Of a stretch of 64,000 bases of DNA, positions 2,303 through 18,537 are shown in pieces (within the stretch, counting starts at the first letter, position 1; the number at the start of each line of letters is the position of its first letter). Below the pieces are notes generated by a model. That model was not told where the DNA came from. It did no database searches and saw only the letters and a program-made list of their open reading frames with translations. Where the stretch lies: positions 1 through 64,000 of IMG/VR virus record IMGVR_UViG_3300050821_006672. One strand, given 5' to 3'. The DNA comes from a virus. Made by a program: the position numbers and the translations under genes.

Positions 2303-2661
2303 AGAAGATCGCTATGCTTACTCTCGCAGCGACCCTCAGCCTAGGCAGTTGCGCTGGCACTACCAGCATCACGCCAGCCACTATCCAATCAGCAGTTACT
2401 CAAGTACAGCAGGCTACTGTGGCAATTTGTGGCGTATTGCCCTTCGCTAACGTTGCGCTAGCTACTCTATCTACCGTTGTGCCTGGTGCGGCTTCTATCG
2501 ACGCGGCGATCGCGGCCACCGCAAATCAATTGTGCATGACTGCAGTTTCGCGCGCTCCTTCGCTTGGCGTTTCTGCAAGAACGACACTTCGTGCGTCTGC
2601 TCCGATTGGGAAGATTGTCGATACTGCAAGATGGAACCAGTACTTGAAAAGCTCGCGTTAG
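2299..2661 (+). CDS. lipoprotein, possible spanin
   Basis: MKKIAMLTLAATLSLGSC: signal peptide with lipobox; GGAG RBS. Confidence 0.65.
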   Translation: MKKIAMLTLAATLSLGSCAGTTSITPATIQSAVTQVQQATVAICGVLPFANVALATLSTVVPGAASIDAAIAATANQLCMTAVSRAPSLGVSARTTLRASAPIGKIVDTARWNQYLKSSR

Positions 2662-2683
2662 AGGCCCTTGGGCGGTTTGTGTG

Positions 2684-3172
2684 CTAAGTCACGCTGGGGA
2701 CGGGAGGCGCCGCGGCAGGTTCCTTGGCGAGGGCGCGGAGCCGATTACATACGTCGAGGGCACCATAAGCGCGACCGCGCGCCAATTCATCTCCTGGTGC
2801 CCCTTCTTGCCATGCCACGGCGACGGCTTCACCAATTGCGATGCACCGCTCGATCGTCGCGGCTTCGATGGCGTCGCGCTCTGCCAGCACCTCGTAAATC
2901 GTCCTCATCGCGCTGGTGTTCTCCAACTCCCGCACGCGGGCTTCGGCAGCCTCGGCCCGATGTAGCCGATCCCCCGATAGTCGCTCTGCATTGAAAAGCA
3001 TGCGTTTCGTTTGCTCGATCTCCTGCGCCTGCGCGGCGACTCTCGCCTCTGCAGCTTCTGCGCGTGCGCCCAATTGGTCGATCAGTTCGTGCGGATCATC
3101 CTGAGATTCGCTACTGAGCGCATCAACTGCTCGCTGGACCAAGTCCGAGATCGGTTCTGCGGTGTCGGTCAT
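2684..3172 (-). CDS. hypothetical coiled-coil protein
   Basis: RAEAAEARV repeats typical of small phage accessory proteins. Confidence 0.6.
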   Translation of the reverse strand: MTDTAEPISDLVQRAVDALSSESQDDPHELIDQLGARAEAAEARVAAQAQEIEQTKRMLFNAERLSGDRLHRAEAAEARVRELENTSAMRTIYEVLAERDAIEAATIERCIAIGEAVAVAWQEGAPGDELARGRAYGALDVCNRLRALAKEPAAAPPVPSVT

Positions 3173-3418
3173 TTGGCGTTCTCACCATAGCCGTCCGATA
3201 CCCACACCCAGGCATAGGTGCTCCAAGGCCACGCATACCAGCGGGGTCTTCGATGCGTCGGTCATGTTGGCGGTTCCTCGTTGGGCCTTCTCTTGTGCGC
3301 CGCGCGTCATTGGGGGGCCCTGTACTGGTTTCTCGTCCATAAGCTTCGCGTCCTCTGTGAGCCTCACCACCTCGCACGTCGCTTAGGGGGTGTACCGGCA
3401 TCCTTAAGGGGAGTAGCG

Positions 3419-3613
3419 CTATAAACCCCGTCCTGGGTTTTGTAGCGTTACTACTCCACCGGGGGATTTTACCCGTCTGCTTCGAATGTATTCTTCCAAC
3501 GTTATAACCGGACCAGCATAATATTGCATGAACTTATTGTACTCGTCGCGATAGCGAGCAAGATCGCCCTGCGTTATGTGAATAGTCGGCTCTTCGATGA
3601 TTTTGATACTCAT
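3419..3613 (-). CDS. hypothetical protein
   Basis: ORF coupled to upstream gene. Confidence 0.5.
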   Translation of the reverse strand: MSIKIIEEPTIHITQGDLARYRDEYNKFMQYYAGPVITLEEYIRSRRVKSPGGVVTLQNPGRGL

Positions 3614-3861
3614 GATTCCTTCTCCATCGTAACTTTGATTACGTCGCCGATTTCCAGCCCTTCCGGCTTCTCCTTCCCCACATACAGCGCTTCGTAGCTG
3701 CCTTCCAGCGCAAGGAACCAGCCTAGCTGTTCTGTGCGTAGTTCCACGTTGTCCGCGGTCGCCGACTTGTTGCGATCGAGGATGCGTCCTGAGGCTATTC
3801 GCTCGCGCGGCTCTAGTTTGACGACGCGGGTGTGAAAGACTATTGGGGGCATAATGTGCAC
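3610..3861 (-). CDS. hypothetical protein
   Basis: ORF in operon orientation. Confidence 0.5.
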   Translation of the reverse strand: MHIMPPIVFHTRVVKLEPRERIASGRILDRNKSATADNVELRTEQLGWFLALEGSYEALYVGKEKPEGLEIGDVIKVTMEKES

Positions 3862-4022
3862 CGCGGATAGCCGAAGCCGTCGTCTTCTTTATGTATGCAG
3901 GTTTGGCGATAGCTCATATCCATTGCGCCGCATTGTGGGCAGGGATCAAGATCGTCGAAGCACTGGCTCAAGGAGCGCTGTACTAATTCTAGCTTCCTCG
4001 ATTACGTCTTCCCATCTATCTG

Positions 4023-4340
4023 TCATTTTTTGCTCACTCTGTACTTTCCATAACTGTCGTGTATCAACACGCCTCTTCGTGTTAGGTACCCCACTGCATT
4101 ATATATCGCTTTTGTTGGGGCATCTGGGTAGCTTTTCAGTAATTCTTCTATAGTAAGTTCCTCTCGTCCACTGAGGAAGCGAATTACAGAGTGCGCCGCA
4201 GTACCGAAGCGCTTGCCTGCAACGAATGGTGGCAAGGAATCACTCAACTCGCCGACAAGTTGATATCGGGATGTCATTGACAAAGTACGAACTAGGGTTC
4301 GTATCAAAATCATAGTTTCCCGATCTTGCTGCTGGTCCAC
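4023..4340 (-). CDS. winged-helix-like hypothetical protein
   Basis: C-terminal AIYNAVGYLTRRGVLIHDSYGKYRV. Confidence 0.5.
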   Translation of the reverse strand: MDQQQDRETMILIRTLVRTLSMTSRYQLVGELSDSLPPFVAGKRFGTAAHSVIRFLSGREELTIEELLKSYPDAPTKAIYNAVGYLTRRGVLIHDSYGKYRVSKK

Positions 4341-12301: not shown

Positions 12302-12615
12302 TTCTGCTCCCCTTGTATCTCGATGCAGTCAAACTCAACAATTTCCATGTCTTCCTTCTTCCGGTGATGCTGCTTTTCAGGGACGGCCCAAGTCCCCTCA
12401 TCTGTACCTTCATAGTTAATATGAGTTTCGTTCTTGAAAATCCCTTGTAGCCAGTTGGACAGGAAGGCCCGCGCTGCCTGCTTGTTGTGGAAGATGCGTG
12501 GCTCGCGTTCGTTAGAGGGTTCCAGCCAAGAGCCGCCGCGTCGCTTACCTGTTTCCAGGCGCGGGATGAATAGGCCCGTTGATTTCTGGCGGACGGCATA
12601 GACTTTCATTATCAC
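12298..12615 (-). CDS. hypothetical protein
   Basis: Coupled ORF. Confidence 0.55.
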   Translation of the reverse strand: MIMKVYAVRQKSTGLFIPRLETGKRRGGSWLEPSNEREPRIFHNKQAARAFLSNWLQGIFKNETHINYEGTDEGTWAVPEKQHHRKKEDMEIVEFDCIEIQGEQK

Positions 12616-14600
12616 CCTTCCGTAAACAGTACTCGTCCGATTGCGGTAATCAATGGTGCCAGCTTATCAGACTGATTGAAGGGCTGTGAGAATGCATCAA
12701 GAATTCCCAACGCATGACAGGCGGCACGATCGGTCTTCGCTCCTTTGGCAACGCTCGCCATGTAGTTAGCCACCACAATGCGGATTGACTCTGGGTTTTC
12801 GCCATCGAGTTGTTCGAGTAGTCCCATTGCCTTCATCCATGATCCCCCCTTGACCAGGAAGCGGCAGAGTTCGATCATGGCATCGGACTGAGAAGCAGTG
12901 TGGAGTAGTTCGCTGGCTTCTTTACGAGACCTGGCGTTTCGACACAACTCGAGGTTGACAAGGAGTTGGCGTGGCGAGCCACGGGCTTCCTTGATGATGG
13001 TATCGCCGACATCTCCAGGGAGTTCCAGGTCCTCAGCTTCGGCAACTTTGTCATACAATTTGCCAAGGTCGGTATTGGGAACATCACGCAGAGTGTAGCT
13101 GGCAGCACGGGTCTTGATTGTATCTGGCACTTTCGATGGTTCGGTTGTGCAGAAGAACCAAAAAGCATGTTCCGGGGGTTTCTCAGTGATCTTCAATAGT
13201 GACTGCCATGCATTTTTCGATAAACTGTGACAGTTGTGTACAATAACATTGGCGACGCTAAATGATGGGTGCTCTTTTATTTCTAAGTCATAGAACTCAA
13301 ATAGCGCTTCACCGTCCAGACTACCGCACGGGAATTGCCCGATATTTGTGAGTTCTTGAAGCGAAGGATGGTCCACCCCAATGACTGTAGTCGCTCGTCC
13401 TTGAGCTTGTCTATTTGGCGTTGTTGTCGAGAGTTGTGTGTTCCACCATCCACCTCGATACCCAATCGCTGCTTCGGAAAACCGATGTCGATTTTGTAAC
13501 AGGATGGCCATCCCTTTAGCCTTCGACCATGCCCAAACGTAACAACATGTTCCAACTGCCCACCAACTAAGGAGTGTAGTAACGTTTGTTCCCGAGTTGG
13601 TCCCTTGCCATTCCCACCGCGTTCGCCTGTCCATATGTGAAGCGTGCCATTGGTATCTTTCACGCGTAGCATCTTTTCTACTGTCGCTTGATTGCGCATT
13701 GGGTTGTTGTGACGCATTCGAATACTGCATCGTTTGGCAATGCCAGCCCACATCTCTGGTTTTTTGTGTTTGCTTCGAAGCACTCCCGCACGTTGATTGT
13801 TTTTTCTTTGCTGGGAGTGAGATCGTCCAACTCGTTTCAAACCACCAAGTTTGGCTCCGCATTTTCGTGAACACGTAGTTACAGGGGATGTTGGCCGCGC
13901 TCGAAAGTATTCTCCACAAATTACGCATTTTCTCTTCAAGCACTCTGGACAGAATATTGATCCACTTTTTTTGCTCGTATACCGGGTCCCACATTGACGA
14001 CAAGTGTTGTGGTATATTGGAGGCGTTAGTGGGTAACCTTTTGGCATGTAAATCCCTCGCGTTGATCCAACCGCCAAATGTCAGAAATGGATGTTCTTGC
14101 GAGGAGATTATATGATGCCCGCTTTCCAGGCGCAATCTAACAATGTGTGATAAAGGAACTAGTCGTTTGCTCACTGATGCGACAGTTTGCTCGCCGTGAG
14201 CGCCTAGTACTTTGTCTCCTGACAGGAGCTGTTCAATGGGAACATCCCCGTTAGGAGTGTTTACTAAGGTGCCTTTAACAAAGCATTCGTCCAAGATGAC
14301 GGCGCGTTTCGTTCCCTGCCCGAATGGTTTGTAACGAAGCATCTCCTGGATTGAGCGCATATCGTCAACGCCAGTACGAGATGCGGCGTCAATCTCGGTG
14401 ATGTTGGCATCGAGACATCCTGCTGTTCGCGCAGATATCCTTGCCAAAGTCGTCTTTCCACATCCCGATGGCCCACAGAAAAGGAAGGTTTGCGCTCCCC
14501 CTCTTAAGATAATGGCTTTCAATGATTTGATAATAGTTGTATGACCAATGACCTCATCAAAGGTTCTAGGTCGATACTTGTCGTGCAGTACCTCTGTCAT
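12612..14600 (-). CDS. dnaX: DnaX-like clamp loader ATPase, intein-containing
   Basis: LHDKYRPRTFDEVIG, GPSGCGKTT, EIDAAS, ILDE|C, LLKITEKPP; ATG 14600 overlaps the upstream stop. Confidence 0.9.
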   Translation of the reverse strand: MTEVLHDKYRPRTFDEVIGHTTIIKSLKAIILRGGAQTFLFCGPSGCGKTTLARISARTAGCLDANITEIDAASRTGVDDMRSIQEMLRYKPFGQGTKRAVILDECFVKGTLVNTPNGDVPIEQLLSGDKVLGAHGEQTVASVSKRLVPLSHIVRLRLESGHHIISSQEHPFLTFGGWINARDLHAKRLPTNASNIPQHLSSMWDPVYEQKKWINILSRVLEEKMRNLWRILSSAANIPCNYVFTKMRSQTWWFETSWTISLPAKKKQSTCGSASKQTQKTRDVGWHCQTMQYSNASQQPNAQSSDSRKDATRERYQWHASHMDRRTRWEWQGTNSGTNVTTLLSWWAVGTCCYVWAWSKAKGMAILLQNRHRFSEAAIGYRGGWWNTQLSTTTPNRQAQGRATTVIGVDHPSLQELTNIGQFPCGSLDGEALFEFYDLEIKEHPSFSVANVIVHNCHSLSKNAWQSLLKITEKPPEHAFWFFCTTEPSKVPDTIKTRAASYTLRDVPNTDLGKLYDKVAEAEDLELPGDVGDTIIKEARGSPRQLLVNLELCRNARSRKEASELLHTASQSDAMIELCRFLVKGGSWMKAMGLLEQLDGENPESIRIVVANYMASVAKGAKTDRAACHALGILDAFSQPFNQSDKLAPLITAIGRVLFTEG
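13233..14285 (-). mobile_element. intein (351 aa) in DnaX, directly after Walker B
   Basis: Starts CFVKGTLVNTPNG (block A), SSQEHPF (B), FYDLEI (F), ends VHN followed by Cys; splicing restores ILDECHSLS. Confidence 0.92.
13283..14047 (-). CDS. DUF559/Vsr-like endonuclease with zinc fingers, overprinted in the +1 frame inside the DnaX intein
   Basis: CRQC, CPEC, CVIC, CSRKC; YKIDIG...IEVDGGTH...DKLKDERLQSLGWTILRF; GAGGGA RBS before ATG 14047. Confidence 0.85.
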   Translation of the reverse strand: MPKGYPLTPPIYHNTCRQCGTRYTSKKSGSIFCPECLKRKCVICGEYFRARPTSPVTTCSRKCGAKLGGLKRVGRSHSQQRKNNQRAGVLRSKHKKPEMWAGIAKRCSIRMRHNNPMRNQATVEKMLRVKDTNGTLHIWTGERGGNGKGPTREQTLLHSLVGGQLEHVVTFGHGRRLKGWPSCYKIDIGFPKQRLGIEVDGGTHNSRQQRQIDKLKDERLQSLGWTILRFKNSQISGNSRAVVWTVKRYLSSMT

Positions 14601-15019
14601 TTCTTTTCCCATGGAAATACTAGCCAAGTATCTTGTTCGACTTTTACAGAGAATGTATCAATGAATTGTGTTTCCGTAGGTTTTGCGTACACCACTGCAT
14701 AATGAGCAGTAAGCACTTTTTGTACGCTTTCTATCGTTTTTCCTGTACTAATAGTGTCATCAACTACTAATACGGGACTAGGCATGAGACGGGGAAACTT
14801 GGTGATGTGAAGAAGACTGCCTCGTTGTTTGTTTTCGTCGTAGCTTTCTATGCATAGGGTTTCAATCATACGAATGTTGAGTTCGTGTGCAATTATTGTG
14901 GCTGGAACCAAGCCCCCTCGGGATACTGCAATAATTGATGCGAAGCCCCGTGGCAGTTGTTTGATGAGTGCTCTGGTGTCCTGATGAAATCGTTCCCAGG
15001 TGATGTTGATGGTATTCAT
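14597..15019 (-). CDS. gpt: xanthine/guanine phosphoribosyltransferase-like
   Basis: AVSRGGLVP, PRPP loop VVDDTISTGKT, C-terminal WLVFPWE. Confidence 0.85.
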   Translation of the reverse strand: MNTINITWERFHQDTRALIKQLPRGFASIIAVSRGGLVPATIIAHELNIRMIETLCIESYDENKQRGSLLHITKFPRLMPSPVLVVDDTISTGKTIESVQKVLTAHYAVVYAKPTETQFIDTFSVKVEQDTWLVFPWEKK

Positions 15020-18000
15020 GATCGCTTATGTCCCCAAATTTCTACGGAACTGAACTTGCCAATCTCGGTCAGGTCACACCAGTTTTCTCCAACTGAGACT
15101 TCCACCCCTAGAGGAACATTTACCCATGGGAACTCTACGCGGGTCATCTCACGTACTACAATTTCCAAGTTCTTGTCGATTTCGTGCTTGGGCCAGATGA
15201 AAGTCAAATCATCATGTATCTCCATATTGGCTTGGAAACGTAATTGTTCATATTCGGACAATCGCGCCATAGCAGAACATACAATTTTCGATTCAAGTGC
15301 TTGGATAGGGCTGTTGATTCTTTGGTTAGGTGAGATTGGTGCACGACGCCTGAAACCGGACAGTCCCGTGATGTACCCTAGTTTGTAGTACATCTTTTCT
15401 AAGTCGTCATGCCACTTTTTGATATCAGGAAACTTACTCCAGAATGTCTCTTGTAGTTTGACGCCGATGTGTTTCGGAACACCCAACCCTCCCGATACAT
15501 TTTCTGCCTGCGCGCCGAAGAACGAGGGAAATACGAACTTGTTCTTCGACTCCTGCCGGAGTTCCTTTGCAAGTTCCTTGTCTTTGAGTGATTTTCCACG
15601 CAACCATTGCGGATACATTTTGGCGAGCCGATACATCCAGTCCGAATGAATGTCATAGTTGTTCCAGAATGCATCTACCAAAGCTTTATCACATGACTCC
15701 ATAGCAACATTACGTGCTTGAATACCTGAGAAATCAACTGTGACAACACGCAAATCCCCTCCCGGCTTAACCTGCTTTCGCAACTTACGGTTAGGCCCAT
15801 GCTTTACTATGTTTTGGCTATTAGGATCATTACTACTCGTTCGCCACGTGCGAGTACTATGCGTGCTAATGTGAGGATGAACGCAGCCATCCGAGTATAA
15901 AGTATCCGAGCCCTTCTTGAAGGGAAGTATATACGTGGAATGCATCTTGTTGGCTTCGCGCCAATCCAAGACCAAGTTTACAAAAGGATGTTTGATCTGT
16001 TTGAGTTCGTTTTCATCCACGCTCTCGACGGGATGATTGAGTATCTTCTCAATGACGAACTTGACATCCTGATTGGCTGATGGTCGAAATTCTGTCTTTT
16101 TTATCCGAGCAAACTTCTTTACGACGTCGAGTTGTGTCAGGTCTTTCTCTATCTTGCTACGACGTTGCGTAAATTCCTTGTCAAACTCGTTAACGACATC
16201 CTGGTTTGCTGGAATGCCTTTCAATTGGGTGAGAACCATCGTTGGGATGCGCCGCAACTGATGCTCGTACACACCCATCAAATCTTCGTCACGCAGACGT
16301 TTACGCTGTGGGAAGTACAAGTAGCGATGGGCTTTGCTATCGAGTGCGTTGTAACGTAGGACTTGGTCTAATGGTTCCTTGTCCAGGTTGTTCTTATCGA
16401 GCTTCCCAAACAACGCTTTTACGTCCAGCCCAAAGTACTGGATGCAAAGGAACTCGAGGCTGTGGCATCCGGGGTTGCCTCCCATACGTTCATCCAGGAT
16501 GTAGGCTTGTGAAAGCGTGTCTTCCCAGGGTTGGGCGCGGAGTACCTTCCTGCCATAGAAATATGCTGACCACTCCATTTCAAAGGAGAGTGAATGTACC
16601 ACCTTCTTACAAGGAGCGGTCAGGAGAAACTCTAGCAGAGTATCTTCTACGCGTTCGATCTGACGATCAGACCAGTCACATTCTGGATGATACAAGGGAA
16701 ATGATGCGGCAACCTCATATCCCGCCATTGCCACTGTGAGTATTTTTGAGGTCTTCTTGTATGGGCGTAATCCTTTTGTTTCGTAGTCATAGCCGACGAT
16801 CTTTTCGTTATGCATCGCCTTGATGAACTTGATTGCGGCATCGGGATTTGTAATGATCTCTACGTCACGTGAGAGGTCCTCGACGGTGAAAACCTTGGGT
16901 TCGGGGAGTTTGTCAACGATGGCAAATGCATTACGCAGATCATTAGCAAATGCGAACTCGATGTCCGAGCCATAGCTGTTTTTATCCCTTGGCTCAAACT
17001 TGCGGGACCGTCCTACGTAGGACGGATGCATCATGGGGAAGAACCAGCAAATGTGATTCCCTACCTTGATGGGAACATGTCTGCCATTCCACTTGGTAAT
17101 GCCTTGCTGCTTGAGCGCCCATTGAAGGGGCACGTTTCCAAAACCGAAGATTGCTTTTGGCTTTGTCTTTTCTACGTCGGACGTAATTGATGGACGGCAG
17201 CACTCCACTTCTACCTGGGTAGGTTCACGGTTCTTGGGTGGTCGAGTGTTGCTTACGACATGATTTTCCGCTACATACCAACCTTCGTCGGTTTCTAAGT
17301 TGTATATAAATCCTTCAAAGGGTTGGGTATCAATATGAATGACATTGTCAAACTGTATAAGAGTGGGGTTAGTTTGTGTCAACTTGAAGAGCAACTCGGA
17401 ACCTCCAAGTTCTTGATTAAGAAAATCCTCCTTTCTAATGGGGTGCGAATGCGTACCCATAGAGAGTCCAGAAATATTGAAGCGGCTAAGCCCTTGTGGA
17501 GACCTCCATCCGTTAAGGAAGTCTGTGATAGGTACGTCGCCGGTGAAAGCACGGAAGAACTCGCTAAAATTTATCATGTCCGCCCGCGTACTGTAAGTAG
17601 TTTTCTCAAACGGAACGGTATTAAAATCAGAAATGTTAGTGAACAGCTGCGTGTTTGGGCAAAGCGAAATCCCAGTGTTATCGATAGGAAACGTCGCTTC
17701 GGTCAGGGTATTAGATTGGGGGCCAATCTCAGAGAGGTTTGTACTCGCGAGGCACGTGCTAGAAGACTTCAACAAACACTTTCTGTTGCCTCTGATATTG
17801 AGCTGCTGTTGATTCCCGAACTTAAGCGGAGAAGCATTCGATTTATCAGACAGTACCCAGTTGGGACTTACAACCTCGACTTCGCCTGTTCCAATATCGC
17901 CGTGGAAATTGAAGTTAGTGTCAACCATCCGTTGGCTATGCCCCACAAGAGATTGCGCTGCAAAAAGCTCATCGAGGCGGGATGGTTTGTTTTGTTCGTG

Positions 18001-18537
18001 TGGATAAATTCCTCCCATCCATTGGTTCCTGCTACCGTAGTTAACTATTTGATCTCCAAGAGAAAGTTGATACGCGAAAAGCCATCCTTGGGATGTAAGT
18101 ATTGGGTGGTGCGGGGTACAGGGGAGTTCGTCTCCAAAACGCGTCTTGACTATTATAAGCTCACCCACGAAGTAGCGGCGGAATAACTTCTTTATTCTGG
18201 ACGGTGTTGTTACTTTTACTGAACCAGGAAAGCAGCGCACTACATTGGTCCATCGAATCTTATCATTCCATTTCTCAGGAATGCGAAAGCGTAGTATCTG
18301 GCCCGTCTTCCCGACAAACTGCTTTCCTTGCTCGTCTTCCGAGGCCCCAGGGGCTTCCCCAATTACTAAAATTGTAGGATGATCGGAACCAGTTGGCTCC
18401 ATGTGTGGATGTTTTAGCCCGCGCTGATGGTTGAGCGGACAGACCGCGCAGCCATGGCGATGAAGGAAATCTACAGATAGGTTTTTGGGAACCAGTGATT
18501 CATTGTTGCGAGCTGGGGACGTTGGAAGGAAACCCAT
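15016..18537 (-). CDS. family A DNA polymerase with N-terminal family-4-like uracil-DNA glycosylase domain, 3'-5' exonuclease and intein
   Basis: CAVC, GEAPG, FVGKTG, HPSY (UDG); YDYET, YNALD (exonuclease); RTSSNDPNSQN, DFSGIQAR, RQESK, IHDD (polymerase). Confidence 0.9.
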   Translation of the reverse strand: MGFLPTSPARNNESLVPKNLSVDFLHRHGCAVCPLNHQRGLKHPHMEPTGSDHPTILVIGEAPGASEDEQGKQFVGKTGQILRFRIPEKWNDKIRWTNVVRCFPGSVKVTTPSRIKKLFRRYFVGELIIVKTRFGDELPCTPHHPILTSQGWLFAYQLSLGDQIVNYGSRNQWMGGIYPHEQNKPSRLDELFAAQSLVGHSQRMVDTNFNFHGDIGTGEVEVVSPNWVLSDKSNASPLKFGNQQQLNIRGNRKCLLKSSSTCLASTNLSEIGPQSNTLTEATFPIDNTGISLCPNTQLFTNISDFNTVPFEKTTYSTRADMINFSEFFRAFTGDVPITDFLNGWRSPQGLSRFNISGLSMGTHSHPIRKEDFLNQELGGSELLFKLTQTNPTLIQFDNVIHIDTQPFEGFIYNLETDEGWYVAENHVVSNTRPPKNREPTQVEVECCRPSITSDVEKTKPKAIFGFGNVPLQWALKQQGITKWNGRHVPIKVGNHICWFFPMMHPSYVGRSRKFEPRDKNSYGSDIEFAFANDLRNAFAIVDKLPEPKVFTVEDLSRDVEIITNPDAAIKFIKAMHNEKIVGYDYETKGLRPYKKTSKILTVAMAGYEVAASFPLYHPECDWSDRQIERVEDTLLEFLLTAPCKKVVHSLSFEMEWSAYFYGRKVLRAQPWEDTLSQAYILDERMGGNPGCHSLEFLCIQYFGLDVKALFGKLDKNNLDKEPLDQVLRYNALDSKAHRYLYFPQRKRLRDEDLMGVYEHQLRRIPTMVLTQLKGIPANQDVVNEFDKEFTQRRSKIEKDLTQLDVVKKFARIKKTEFRPSANQDVKFVIEKILNHPVESVDENELKQIKHPFVNLVLDWREANKMHSTYILPFKKGSDTLYSDGCVHPHISTHSTRTWRTSSNDPNSQNIVKHGPNRKLRKQVKPGGDLRVVTVDFSGIQARNVAMESCDKALVDAFWNNYDIHSDWMYRLAKMYPQWLRGKSLKDKELAKELRQESKNKFVFPSFFGAQAENVSGGLGVPKHIGVKLQETFWSKFPDIKKWHDDLEKMYYKLGYITGLSGFRRRAPISPNQRINSPIQALESKIVCSAMARLSEYEQLRFQANMEIHDDLTFIWPKHEIDKNLEIVVREMTRVEFPWVNVPLGVEVSVGENWCDLTEIGKFSSVEIWGHKRS
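17248..18234 (-). mobile_element. intein (329 aa) in the UDG domain of the polymerase
   Basis: Starts CFPGSVKV, CTPHHPILTSQGW (B), FIYNLET (F), ends VVSN followed by Thr; splicing restores TNVVR-TRPPKNREP. Confidence 0.88.
17335..18186 (+). CDS. HTH-repeat plus DUF559/Vsr-like endonuclease encoded antisense inside the polymerase intein
   Basis: Two HTH repeats (LYKSGVSLCQL, RYVAGESTEELAKIYHV); SDIE...RQYPVGTYNLDFA...IAVEIE...LIEAGWFVLFVW. Confidence 0.8.
   Translation: MNDIVKLYKSGVSLCQLEEQLGTSKFLIKKILLSNGVRMRTHRESRNIEAAKPLWRPPSVKEVCDRYVAGESTEELAKIYHVRPRTVSSFLKRNGIKIRNVSEQLRVWAKRNPSVIDRKRRFGQGIRLGANLREVCTREARARRLQQTLSVASDIELLLIPELKRRSIRFIRQYPVGTYNLDFACSNIAVEIEVSVNHPLAMPHKRLRCKKLIEAGWFVLFVWINSSHPLVPATVVNYLISKRKLIREKPSLGCKYWVVRGTGEFVSKTRLDYYKLTHEVAAE

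Follow-up and report, generated by a model that had tools for sequence, protein, structure and literature searches.

The window, a 64,000-nucleotide stretch of viral DNA (positions 1 to 64,000 of the IMG/VR record IMGVR_UViG_3300050821_006672), contains two replication genes interrupted by inteins, and within each intein lies an endonuclease gene in another frame or strand. The first host is a clamp-loader gene of the DnaX/gp44-like AAA+ type (12612..14627, minus strand; Pfam DNA_pol3_delta2, AAA, Rad17, Hint_2 and Intein_splicing), which is interrupted by a class-1-type intein of 351 amino acids (intein 1, 13233..14285, minus strand; junction AVILDE/CFVKGT...VIVHN/CHSLSK). Intein 1 possesses a cysteine at position 1, an SxxH motif in block B (SQEH, a form shared with the gp41-1 intein), a terminal HN and a cysteine at +1. 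It is inserted at DE/CH in the Walker B motif, and its excision restores DE-CH(S) in frame, giving a spliced product predicted to be about 320 amino acids long. The same extein with the identical insertion site is found in dozens of IMG/VR contigs (e.g. L014 and L020). The AF2 model of the intein 1 host frame has pLDDT above 90 at residues 1-88 and 320-351 and mostly below 50 in the segments 152-188 and 220-296; all of its top 27 PDB matches in a fold search are inteins or HINT-type domains, and the gp41-1 intein (6QAZ) is the top match by both fold and profile (E 7e-21).

The first endonuclease gene (13283..14047, minus strand; 254 amino acids) is offset by +1 from the host frame, within a nested orf (13283-14077, minus strand) of which the probable start is the ATG at 14047. 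A Shine-Dalgarno-like GAGGG (14054..14058, minus strand) can be read 6 nt upstream of this ATG (14047-14045), inside the intein coding sequence and directly past block B, and an equivalent GAGG or AAGG followed by ATG is present at the matching intein position in CP-T1, K391, phi673 and MR14. The N-terminal part of the protein has a Cys4 zinc-ribbon-like region and then a GGNG motif, and the C-terminal part is a Vsr/EDxHD-like nuclease (YKID...IEVDGGTH...GW..RF.N) that matches DUF559 with 41.8 bits. The AF2 model (mean pLDDT 91.4) is most similar by Foldseek to the catalytic domain of I-Bth0305I (3R3P; probability 1.00, TM 0.67 on the target), then to 3HRL and Vsr. On the matching restriction-endonuclease-like fold it has D187, E198, D200, H204 and D213, all invariant in its family, and none of the other family-invariant residues is missing.

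The second host gene (15016..18537, minus strand; Pfam UDG, DNA_pol_A_exo1 and DNA_pol_A) encodes a fusion of UDG, a 3'-5' exonuclease and a family A DNA polymerase, and its UDG domain is interrupted at NVVR/TRPP by an intein of 329 amino acids (intein 2, 17248..18234, minus strand; junction WTNVVR/CFPGSV...HVVSN/TRPPKN) with a cysteine at position 1, a TPHH motif in block B, a terminal SN and a threonine at +1, residues that fit the class 1 pattern as those of intein 1 do. The penultimate serine and the +1 threonine are less common variants; in the MuF-type intein family to which intein 2 is related, a penultimate serine, arginine or histidine is normal, and serine is common. The splicing domains of intein 2 are homologous to those of MuF/minor-capsid inteins (E 1e-11 to 1e-20), and this homology, together with a Pfam Intein_splicing match below the cut-off, is the basis on which it is assigned as a probable HINT domain. 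The orthologous UDG-PolA genes L094 and L171 carry a related intein 17 amino acids downstream of the intein 2 site. L094 is uninterrupted at the intein 2 site (NIVR-TRPR), and the window's gene is uninterrupted at the L094/L171 site (EVE-CCRPS), so the reciprocal empty sites show the exact boundaries of these inteins.

The second endonuclease gene (17335..18186, plus strand; 283 amino acids) is antisense to intein 2, codon aligned with codon, in an orf (17323-18186, plus strand) with a probable ATG at 17335. Its product consists of two HTH repeats and a DUF559-like nuclease (YNLD...IAVEI), detected as Pfam HTH and DUF559 matches, the latter with 29.7 bits. The nuclease motif IAVEIEVSVNH deviates from the ExDGxxH pattern of DUF559: judged by alignment, the invariant D182 and E191 appear to be kept, with ExE present and DG absent. 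Every residue invariant in its own family is present. The C-terminal YWVVRGTGEF reads as the reverse complement of the block B codons ELPCTPHHPIL. The putative leader (17304..17334, plus strand), antisense to the block F codons (GFIYN), includes, about 25 nt upstream, a TATAAAT that resembles a -10 element or a late promoter, and a weak Shine-Dalgarno sequence (AAAGGG/TTGGG) precedes the ATG; a consensus promoter scan flagged nothing at this leader.

Both DUF559 matches exceed the Pfam gathering cut-off of 20.6 bits, and they are the only two in the whole 109-kb genome, just as these are its only two inteins. The endonucleases have no detectable similarity when compared with each other (E 2.5), and the inteins share block B only (E 0.019). 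Each intein orf is uninterrupted and encloses a complete endonuclease orf between its splicing blocks, as in the inteins termed non-canonical. Across the two endonuclease genes the host frames contain no stops, versus about 13 and 9 expected. When the first gene was shuffled among synonymous codons (5000 shuffles), 12.8 host-frame stops were expected, against 0 observed; when the second was resampled with the phage's own codon usage, 9.2 were expected, and the codons TTA, CTA and TCA, which it would have to avoid, number zero. Unused alternative frames across the same regions carry 9-26 stops. Expected stops vary with GC content from 7 to 23 for the +1 frame and from 3 to 15 for the antisense frame. 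The alternative frames do not just stay open; they are held open against expected stops. These results confirm the preliminary description in its observations, namely two overprinted intein-endonuclease elements of the extents given above, with the same logic in different geometry, the same broad nuclease family and no overall resemblance of either component between the two.

Six-frame searches turned up homologues in IMG/VR (about 700 contigs) and in GenBank (about 150 phage records), and both families, designated 1 and 2 after the two elements, reach phages of Vibrio, Pseudomonas, enterobacteria and Pasteurellaceae. A census was made of the best 80 of at least 388 matches for family 1 and the best 80 of at least 308 for family 2, with exteins identified by Pfam; 144 of these 160 related IMG/VR loci were automatically scored as contiguous inteins. 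The endonuclease is same-strand +1 in all 74 contiguous elements of family 1 and in one and the same antisense frame in all 70 of family 2, which establishes that out-of-frame nucleases recur in other inteins and that both elements of the window belong to a class, as had been proposed. The ten GenBank phages that were checked agree with this geometry, including six of six in the antisense family. No host-frame stop occurs in any of the 144 elements, whereas 12.2 per element are expected in family 1, and in family 2 TTA, CTA or TCA would be expected 318 times but are found in none of 17,904 nuclease codons. The family profiles match 3HRL (1.5e-12 for family 1, 2e-5 for family 2) and I-Bth0305I (3R3P; 1.4e-4 and 2e-3). 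Of 53 unique family 2 starts, 34 are antisense to the codons of the block F peptide H-V-Y-[ND]-L, a position from which the start of the window's second endonuclease is displaced. Among the 160 loci there is no in-frame or split form, and family members are only 26-40% identical; thus the layout looks stable rather than transitional, contrary to the earlier suggestion that it is an intermediate on the route to in-frame fusions. Three relatives are free-standing: L076 and L084 are family 1 endonuclease genes without an intein, and L154 is a family 2 gene that converges on a MuF gene without an intein.

As the window lacks a close relative, selection was measured across family members. For the same nucleotides, the comparison of CP-T1 with K391 yields 249 bits in the nuclease frame versus 101 in the host frame, and that of the window with CP-T1 yields 74 versus 24; in both families substitutions are most frequent at position 3 of the nuclease frame, then position 1, then position 2. 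Over the overlap, the endonuclease frame is under purifying selection and the amino-acid constraint on the intein frame is relaxed. The idea that splicing disposes of a junk translation holds only in part, since the ends of the endonuclease genes overlap functional splicing blocks: the final 33 or so codons of the first gene coincide with the folded C-terminal splicing strands of intein 1, and the second gene runs antisense to block B at its tail. The comparison of Hint and nuclease phylogenies that had been proposed was made with distances, which co-vary (Mantel r 0.71 and 0.77, p<0.0005), and the splicing domains of the window are homologous to those of other carriers. An exception is found on one contig with two loci, L071 and L040, where nuclease and splicing domain have different nearest relatives: the nuclease of the helicase intein L071 is nearest the clamp-loader clade (51% identity) and its splicing domain is nearest the helicase inteins. 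Strict inheritance as a unit is therefore not absolute. No close relative of this phage was found that could show recent gain or an intein-free allele.

The invariant geometry, the selection on the nuclease frame and the co-variation of distances indicate two old composite lineages rather than fresh invasions, and the window is best explained as carrying two composite selfish elements, members of two old and widespread lineages in which the relation between frames is frozen (probability about 0.8). Each element would be a mini-intein with a HINT splicing domain, and the DNA of its central loop would double as the gene of a Vsr/EDxHD-type (DUF559) homing endonuclease that is translated separately. 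In element 1, ribosomes are predicted to translate the clamp-loader precursor right through intein 1, the splicing halves of which would fold together around a largely unstructured linker of about 210 amino acids that arises when the endonuclease gene is read out of frame; splicing at DE/CH would then remove the insert in full, and the endonuclease would be made from the same mRNA by internal initiation in the +1 frame (GAGGG-N6-ATG). Element 2 would follow a parallel logic in the UDG domain of the polymerase, with the endonuclease encoded codon against codon on the opposite strand, for which it would need its own antisense transcript. Each nuclease would be expected to cleave alleles that lack the intein when other phages infect the same cell, whereupon repair would copy in intein and nuclease together, and the two would be inherited as a unit. 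Any indel of a length not divisible by three would ruin the host gene.

The interpretation in the preliminary description is partly supported. It held that free-standing DUF559 genes repeatedly invade mini-inteins in any open frame or strand, which would make the elements of the window recent independent invasions. The three free-standing relatives fit an origin from free-standing homing endonuclease genes, and repeated invasion would accommodate two unrelated DUF559 lineages in two geometries within one genome, the mismatched relatives of L071, and the antisense frame of GC-rich phages, in which as few as 0.5 stops are expected and which could open by chance. However, neither nuclease lineage departs from its one geometry (144 of 144), distances among nucleases co-vary with those among splicing domains, carriers have homologous splicing domains, and the chance that the +1 frame would be open at this GC content is about e^-12. 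Two ancient origins and spread as units explain the data better, and repeated invasion is improbable. Slightly less probable still is that the elements are decaying relics, inteins that still splice around unexpressed or inactive orfs that are open only through recent ancestry. The weak Shine-Dalgarno sequence, displaced start and divergent catalytic motif of the second endonuclease gene would suit such decay, as would the lack of close relatives that could show ongoing homing, but both orfs are full length and retain all family-invariant residues, the first has a strong Shine-Dalgarno sequence and a confident fold, and an orf free of selection would before long pick up stops in its own frame, where the unused frames over these regions carry 9-26. 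A programmed ribosomal frameshift that fuses the N-terminal half of intein 1 to the nuclease, or an assembly or frameshift artefact of a canonical in-frame intein-endonuclease, might be imagined from the shared strand, the one-base offset and the single long host orf given by gene callers, but is very improbable given the same offset in 74 independent contigs and in cultured phages from different sequencing groups, more than 250 out-of-frame codons open in the host frame, the conserved Shine-Dalgarno sequence and ATG, and the loss of the C-terminal splicing half that a frameshift product would suffer.

Beyond the reading as two old composite lineages, it may tentatively be proposed that the overlap is a stable dual-coding design in which each frame locks the other, and not junk that is tolerated until an in-frame fusion arises, that the +1 family is a contiguous sister of the gp41-1-type split inteins, and that the probable origin was in GC-rich phages. 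In the antisense family, the intein block F codons (H-V-Y-N-L-Q) may double as the Shine-Dalgarno sequence and ATG of the nuclease. Block B is co-encoded with a conserved nuclease tail, Y-x-V-V-R-G-x-G, which is also present in the free-standing L154. If the dual-coding proposal is true, the +1 family is a single nonsense mutation away from a split intein, and its origin would lie where alternative frames are most often open by chance.

This phage itself is ordinary: its two selfish elements are ordinary family members in known exteins of essential replication genes, with no sign of a new mechanism. Both layouts are common to hundreds of phages, and ordinary annotation, in which gene callers mark only the long host orf, misses the hidden nuclease genes. 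A collection of 5.8 billion proteins contains only four called homologues of the first nuclease and a single partial match to the second (47% query coverage, over the HTH region). As called homologues are so few and six-frame matches so many, many of the "large inteins without an endonuclease" that interrupt phage replication and head genes are mobile elements whose nuclease has escaped annotation. The two families constitute a large natural data set of protein pairs encoded by the same DNA, each constraining the other, in which three codons or NNT followed by AA, AG or GA are avoided completely, and they bear on how inteins acquire endonucleases and how inteins are split.

The concept of an intein with an overlapping endonuclease has already been published (Gorbalenya 1998, as cited by Gosselin et al.; Dassa 2009; and the preprints of Gosselin et al. 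2025 and Phillips et al. 2026), and the whole model of invasion by free-standing endonucleases had been put forward in Dassa 2009 and Gosselin et al. 2025. The closest known systems are the non-canonical inteins of actinobacteriophages, which have antisense VSR-like, antisense LAGLIDADG or frame-3 endonuclease VII-like endonucleases (Gosselin, Arsenault and Gogarten, bioRxiv 10.1101/2025.01.02.630785). They too are contiguous inteins with a complete endonuclease orf between the splicing blocks in another strand or frame; their VSR-like nuclease is related to I-Bth0305I and has MuF/minor-capsid hosts, and in tblastn the window's second endonuclease has direct relatives in the Gordonia phages Vivi2, Angelicage, Affeca and Fosterous. 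That survey covers actinophages only, its VSR-like endonucleases are antisense only, and it includes neither the same-strand +1 Vsr-like form, with its clamp-loader or DExH-helicase hosts, nor the UDG-PolA host; the +1 form is likewise absent from the architectures listed in the Phillips et al. 2026 preprint. Fractured genes, in which a free-standing Vsr-like or GIY-YIG endonuclease gene lies between the halves of a split intein (Dassa et al. 2009, PMC2677866), share the nuclease family and the setting in phage replication genes, and their endonuclease gene also overlaps the C-terminal intein coding region at its 3' end; the gp41-1 intein is the best of all PDB chains for the family 1 splicing-domain profile (32% identity in the fold match). 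In fractured genes the host gene consists of two orfs and splicing is in trans, whereas both host orfs of the window are continuous and stop-free, which would make splicing occur in cis; a split form is found at none of the 160 loci. The cyanobacterial dnaX intein with an out-of-frame LAGLIDADG endonuclease (Gorbalenya 1998 as cited; Phillips, DeSimone and Gogarten, bioRxiv 10.64898/2026.09.14.751524) resembles element 1 in its clamp-loader host (PolIII gamma/tau), its Walker B insertion (Novikova et al. 2016, PMC4760082), its overlapping endonuclease orf, which has its own Shine-Dalgarno sequence and a low dN/dS, and its intein frame, on which constraint is relaxed; it differs in nuclease type (Vsr/DUF559 here), in an orf called '+2', and in being on a bacterial chromosome rather than in a phage clamp-loader gene, and the Spl DnaX mini-intein matches the family 1 splicing domain more weakly (E 1e-12) than gp41-1 does. 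Finally, I-Bth0305I, the EDxHD/Vsr-like homing endonuclease of a phage recA group I intron (Taylor et al. 2011, PMC3239194; PDB 3R3P), shares its catalytic-domain fold and sequence motifs, being matched by the model of the first endonuclease and by the profiles of both families, and also a modular design with a separate N-terminal DNA-binding region; the likeness covers the catalytic domain, the N-terminal modules here being a zinc ribbon with GGNG and a double HTH, and I-Bth0305I is borne by an intron without overlapping coding.

The phage genome is complete in IMG/VR (109,475 bp with direct terminal repeats, the window being its first 64 kb), and two of its leftward replication genes are interrupted by inteins. 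A clamp-loader AAA+ ATPase gene (12612-14627, minus strand; Pfam DNA_pol3_delta2 and AAA) carries intein 1, of 351 residues (13233-14285, minus strand), within Walker B at the junction AVILDE/CFVKGT...VIVHN/CHSLSK. A UDG-exonuclease-PolA fusion gene (15016-18537, minus strand) carries intein 2, of 329 residues (17248-18234, minus strand), at the junction WTNVVR/CFPGSV...HVVSN/TRPPKN. Between them is a 140-residue Pribosyltran-domain gene (14597-15019, minus strand; Pfam, 40.7 bits), whose start and stop overlap the neighbouring genes. The first endonuclease ORF (13283-14077, minus strand, probable ATG at 14047) is read in a frame shifted one base downstream relative to the host frame of intein 1 and matches DUF559 with 41.8 bits; the second (17323-18186, plus strand, probable ATG at 17335) lies opposite intein 2, codon against codon, with two HTH matches and a DUF559 score of 29.7 bits. 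These are the only two inteins and the only two DUF559 matches in the whole genome, and neither the nucleases nor the inteins have significant likeness to each other. The preliminary description was exact in its coordinates and account of both elements, and in placing the nucleases in one broad family while finding them, like the inteins, mutually dissimilar.

Both nested ORFs appear, from their conservation and from fold or profile matches, to be real proteins. Tblastn located homologues of the first endonuclease, about 30% identical and with E values as low as 3e-21, in 40 GenBank phage records, and homologues of the second in 109; among the matches listed, all fall under an annotated helicase or MuF/head-morphogenesis host gene and never under a gene of their own. 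The first endonuclease was modelled from a deep family alignment with a mean pLDDT of 91.4, and the C-terminal domain of the predicted structure matches the catalytic domain of I-Bth0305I, the DUF559 protein 3HRL and Vsr; the sequence profiles of both nuclease families likewise match 3HRL and I-Bth0305I. When the same nucleotides are compared in both frames, Vibrio phages CP-T1 and K391 score 249 bits in the nuclease frame and 101 bits in the intein frame, and the window and CP-T1 score 74 and 24 bits, respectively. In both families, substitutions are most frequent at the third position of the nuclease frame, then the first, then the second, the opposite of what is expected under host-frame selection. 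In Escherichia phage Snoke (MK931441.1), the MuF intein (273 residues) is annotated but the 250-residue antisense nuclease ORF inside it (L011:2495-3244, plus strand) is not; the nested ORF is likewise unannotated in all ten GenBank records inspected.

The reading of these overlaps as chance ORFs is rejected by stop counts, both in the window genes and in their relatives. Shuffling of synonymous codons in the first endonuclease gene predicts 12.8 host-frame stops, none are observed, and zero was reached in 0 of 5000 shuffles. Recoding the second endonuclease gene according to the codon usage of the phage itself predicts 9.2 stops on the host frame; the codons TTA, CTA and TCA, which are stops on the other strand, are absent from it. 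Among 144 nested elements from IMG/VR, none has a host-frame stop (expectation for family 1, the relatives of the first endonuclease, 12.2 per element), and in family 2, the relatives of the second, these three codons account for 0 of 17,904 nuclease codons as opposed to 318 expected. Since expected stops fall with rising GC content, from 23 to 6.7 in the +1 frame and from about 7 to 3.0 (minimum 0.5) in the antisense frame, a GC-rich origin may be the easiest route to such overlaps.

The geometry is characteristic of each family and not accidental. The nuclease is on the same strand in the +1 frame in all four family-1 GenBank phages (Vibrio CP-T1, Vibrio K391, Corynebacterium phi673 and Pseudomonas MR14), and antisense in the same codon-aligned frame in all six of family 2 (Gordonia Vivi2, Idiomarinaceae 1N2-2, Klebsiella RCIP0054, E. 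coli Snoke, Aaphi23 and Vibrio H2). In IMG/VR, profile scans yielded at least 388 family-1 relatives and at least 308 family-2 relatives. The best 80 of each were classified using HMMs built for the nuclease and for each splicing half, N- and C-terminal. The geometry of the window recurs exactly, in a contiguous intein, at 74 loci of family 1 and 70 of family 2; of the 160 classified loci, not one is in-frame or split. Sixteen loci were left unscored, mostly because a contig end truncates them or the small splicing-domain HMMs failed to detect them, and the six inspected by hand (L045, L069, L080, L140, L143 and L145) have a spanning host ORF with the same geometry. An assembly frameshift is rejected by the identical geometry at 144 independent loci, and fractured genes by the continuity of the host ORFs.

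Truly free-standing nuclease genes number three (L076, L084 and L154). In L154, the nuclease gene (2348-3313, plus strand) is convergent to an intein-less MuF gene (3304-4158, minus strand) and overlaps its 3′ end by 10 nt. This MuF gene ends in HPGCHPRGRCG, the usual insertion motif. The codon-aligned antisense frame of the nuclease has seven stops and no detectable splicing domain, and the nuclease retains a C-terminal YRVIRGSG, a motif that faces block B of the intein in nested copies.

Nuclease and intein have largely been inherited together. The other carriers have splicing domains homologous to the window's (E 1e-10 to 1e-20), the best tblastn matches of the intein 1 N-domain being the same Vibrio phage helicase inteins, and nuclease and splicing-domain distances co-vary in both families (Mantel r 0.71 and 0.77, p<0.0005). 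Family 1 is inserted at DE/CH of Walker B, mostly in clamp loaders among the best matches, with ResIII/DEAD and SNF2 helicases as further hosts; these clamp loaders and helicases have in common the joined-extein nucleotide core GAYGAR/TGYCAY. Family 2 is inserted mostly at HPN/CRC of MuF proteins, and also in UDG-PolA genes; comparison of joined exteins revealed no obvious common target between the MuF (AAY/TGYCGNTGY) and UDG sites. Two loci (L109 and L110) carry a family-2 element at the window's UDG-PolA site, whereas in the orthologous genes of L094 and L171 an antisense-endonuclease intein occupies a second site (E/CCRPS), 17 residues downstream. L094 is uninterrupted where intein 2 sits in the window (VR-TRP), and the window is uninterrupted where L094 and L171 carry theirs (EVE-CCRPS); these reciprocal empty sites confirm the intein boundaries. 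The closest relatives of the splicing domains of intein 2 are those of L094 and L171 (41-43% identity), as though the intein had moved between two positions of one gene. One contig (IMGVR_UViG_3300033144_006696, 123,866 bp) carries two family-1 elements, in a clamp loader (L040) and a helicase (L071). Their nucleases, with 51% identity, rank among each other's nearest relatives, whereas the splicing domains share only 26% identity and each groups with its own extein type; the pair suggests that nuclease modules may occasionally be exchanged between inteins within a genome. A 1202-residue clamp-loader gene (L035:673-4278, plus strand) has two inteins, the upstream one with an in-frame LAGLIDADG domain and the second, at Walker B, with a +1 Vsr-like gene. 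Searches for close relatives of the phage found none. The 6-kb region had no blastn match among GenBank phages, and neither nuclease had one in single-protein scans of IMG/VR; the window's polymerase produced a single relative, truncated at its N-terminus, with 44% identity.

The nuclease genes also run into the splicing blocks. The first, preceded by a conserved GAGG-type SD, begins directly downstream of block B, and since it ends at residue 333 of the 351 of intein 1, its confidently predicted C-terminal helix and the folded C-terminal splicing strands are predicted to have about 33 codons in common. In family 2, the block F peptide H-V-Y-[ND]-L lies opposite 34 of 53 unique starts, and the reverse complement of its codons supplies GGAGG and ATG; the second endonuclease of the window is an exception, its start being displaced by about ten codons with a weak SD. 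The conserved nuclease tail Y-W-V-V-R-G-T-G-E-F corresponds exactly to the reverse complement of block B codons E-L-P-C-T-P-H-H-P-I-L. A consensus promoter scan yielded no convincing promoter for the second endonuclease gene of the window. A TATAAAT at 17304-17310 (plus strand), about 25 nt upstream of the ATG, is a candidate promoter and only a lead; it is the reverse complement of block F codons F-I-Y and agrees at seven of eight positions with TATAAATA, a late-promoter element of the T4 type that Dassa et al. (2009, PMC2677866) reported upstream of the endonucleases of fractured genes. Translation of the nuclease region in the host frame had been described as junk that splices out. This fits the middle of intein 1, where segments 152-188 and 220-296 of the host-frame model are mostly below pLDDT 50 and only residues 1-88 and 320-351, together a HINT domain, are confident; it does not fit the nuclease ends, which overlap the C-terminal strands and blocks F and B, so that the overlap is not only junk.

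Each geometry is thus an old, frozen design, inherited as a unit and held open by selection. The preliminary description is borne out in its observation and in part in its interpretation. Overprinted intein-endonuclease elements do form a class that is real and large, with other out-of-frame nucleases in all ten GenBank phages checked and 144 nested relatives among the best 160 IMG/VR loci. Repeated invasion of any open frame is contradicted by a geometry fixed in each family (74 and 70 scored loci, none in-frame), and the absence of in-frame members among the 160 classified loci gives no sign of an intermediate toward in-frame fusion. On the proposed comparison of Hint and nuclease phylogenies, the correlated distances point mainly to co-inheritance, with the hint of an occasional swap in L040 and L071. 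Both elements presumably splice, express their nucleases separately and home. Phage inteins carry a large class of nucleases that ordinary annotation misses.

Overlapping endonuclease genes in inteins go back to Gorbalenya (1998), as represented in citing papers. Gosselin, Arsenault and Gogarten (bioRxiv 10.1101/2025.01.02.630785) described antisense VSR-like, antisense LAGLIDADG and frame-3 EndoVII-like forms in actinophages, and proposed the same invasion model as the preliminary description. The cyanobacterial dnaX intein of Phillips et al. (bioRxiv 10.64898/2026.09.14.751524) has an out-of-frame LAGLIDADG at Walker B, with a selection pattern like that of the window's families. Dassa et al. 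(2009) found split inteins whose two halves flank a Vsr-like endonuclease gene, and their gp41-1 intein is the best match of the family-1 splicing-domain profile among all PDB chains (E 7e-21). Beyond what those papers appear to contain, the present families seem to add the same-strand +1 Vsr-like architecture, with clamp loaders and DExH helicases as its hosts, UDG-PolA as a host for the antisense type, a spread beyond actinophages, and blocks F and B put to dual use.
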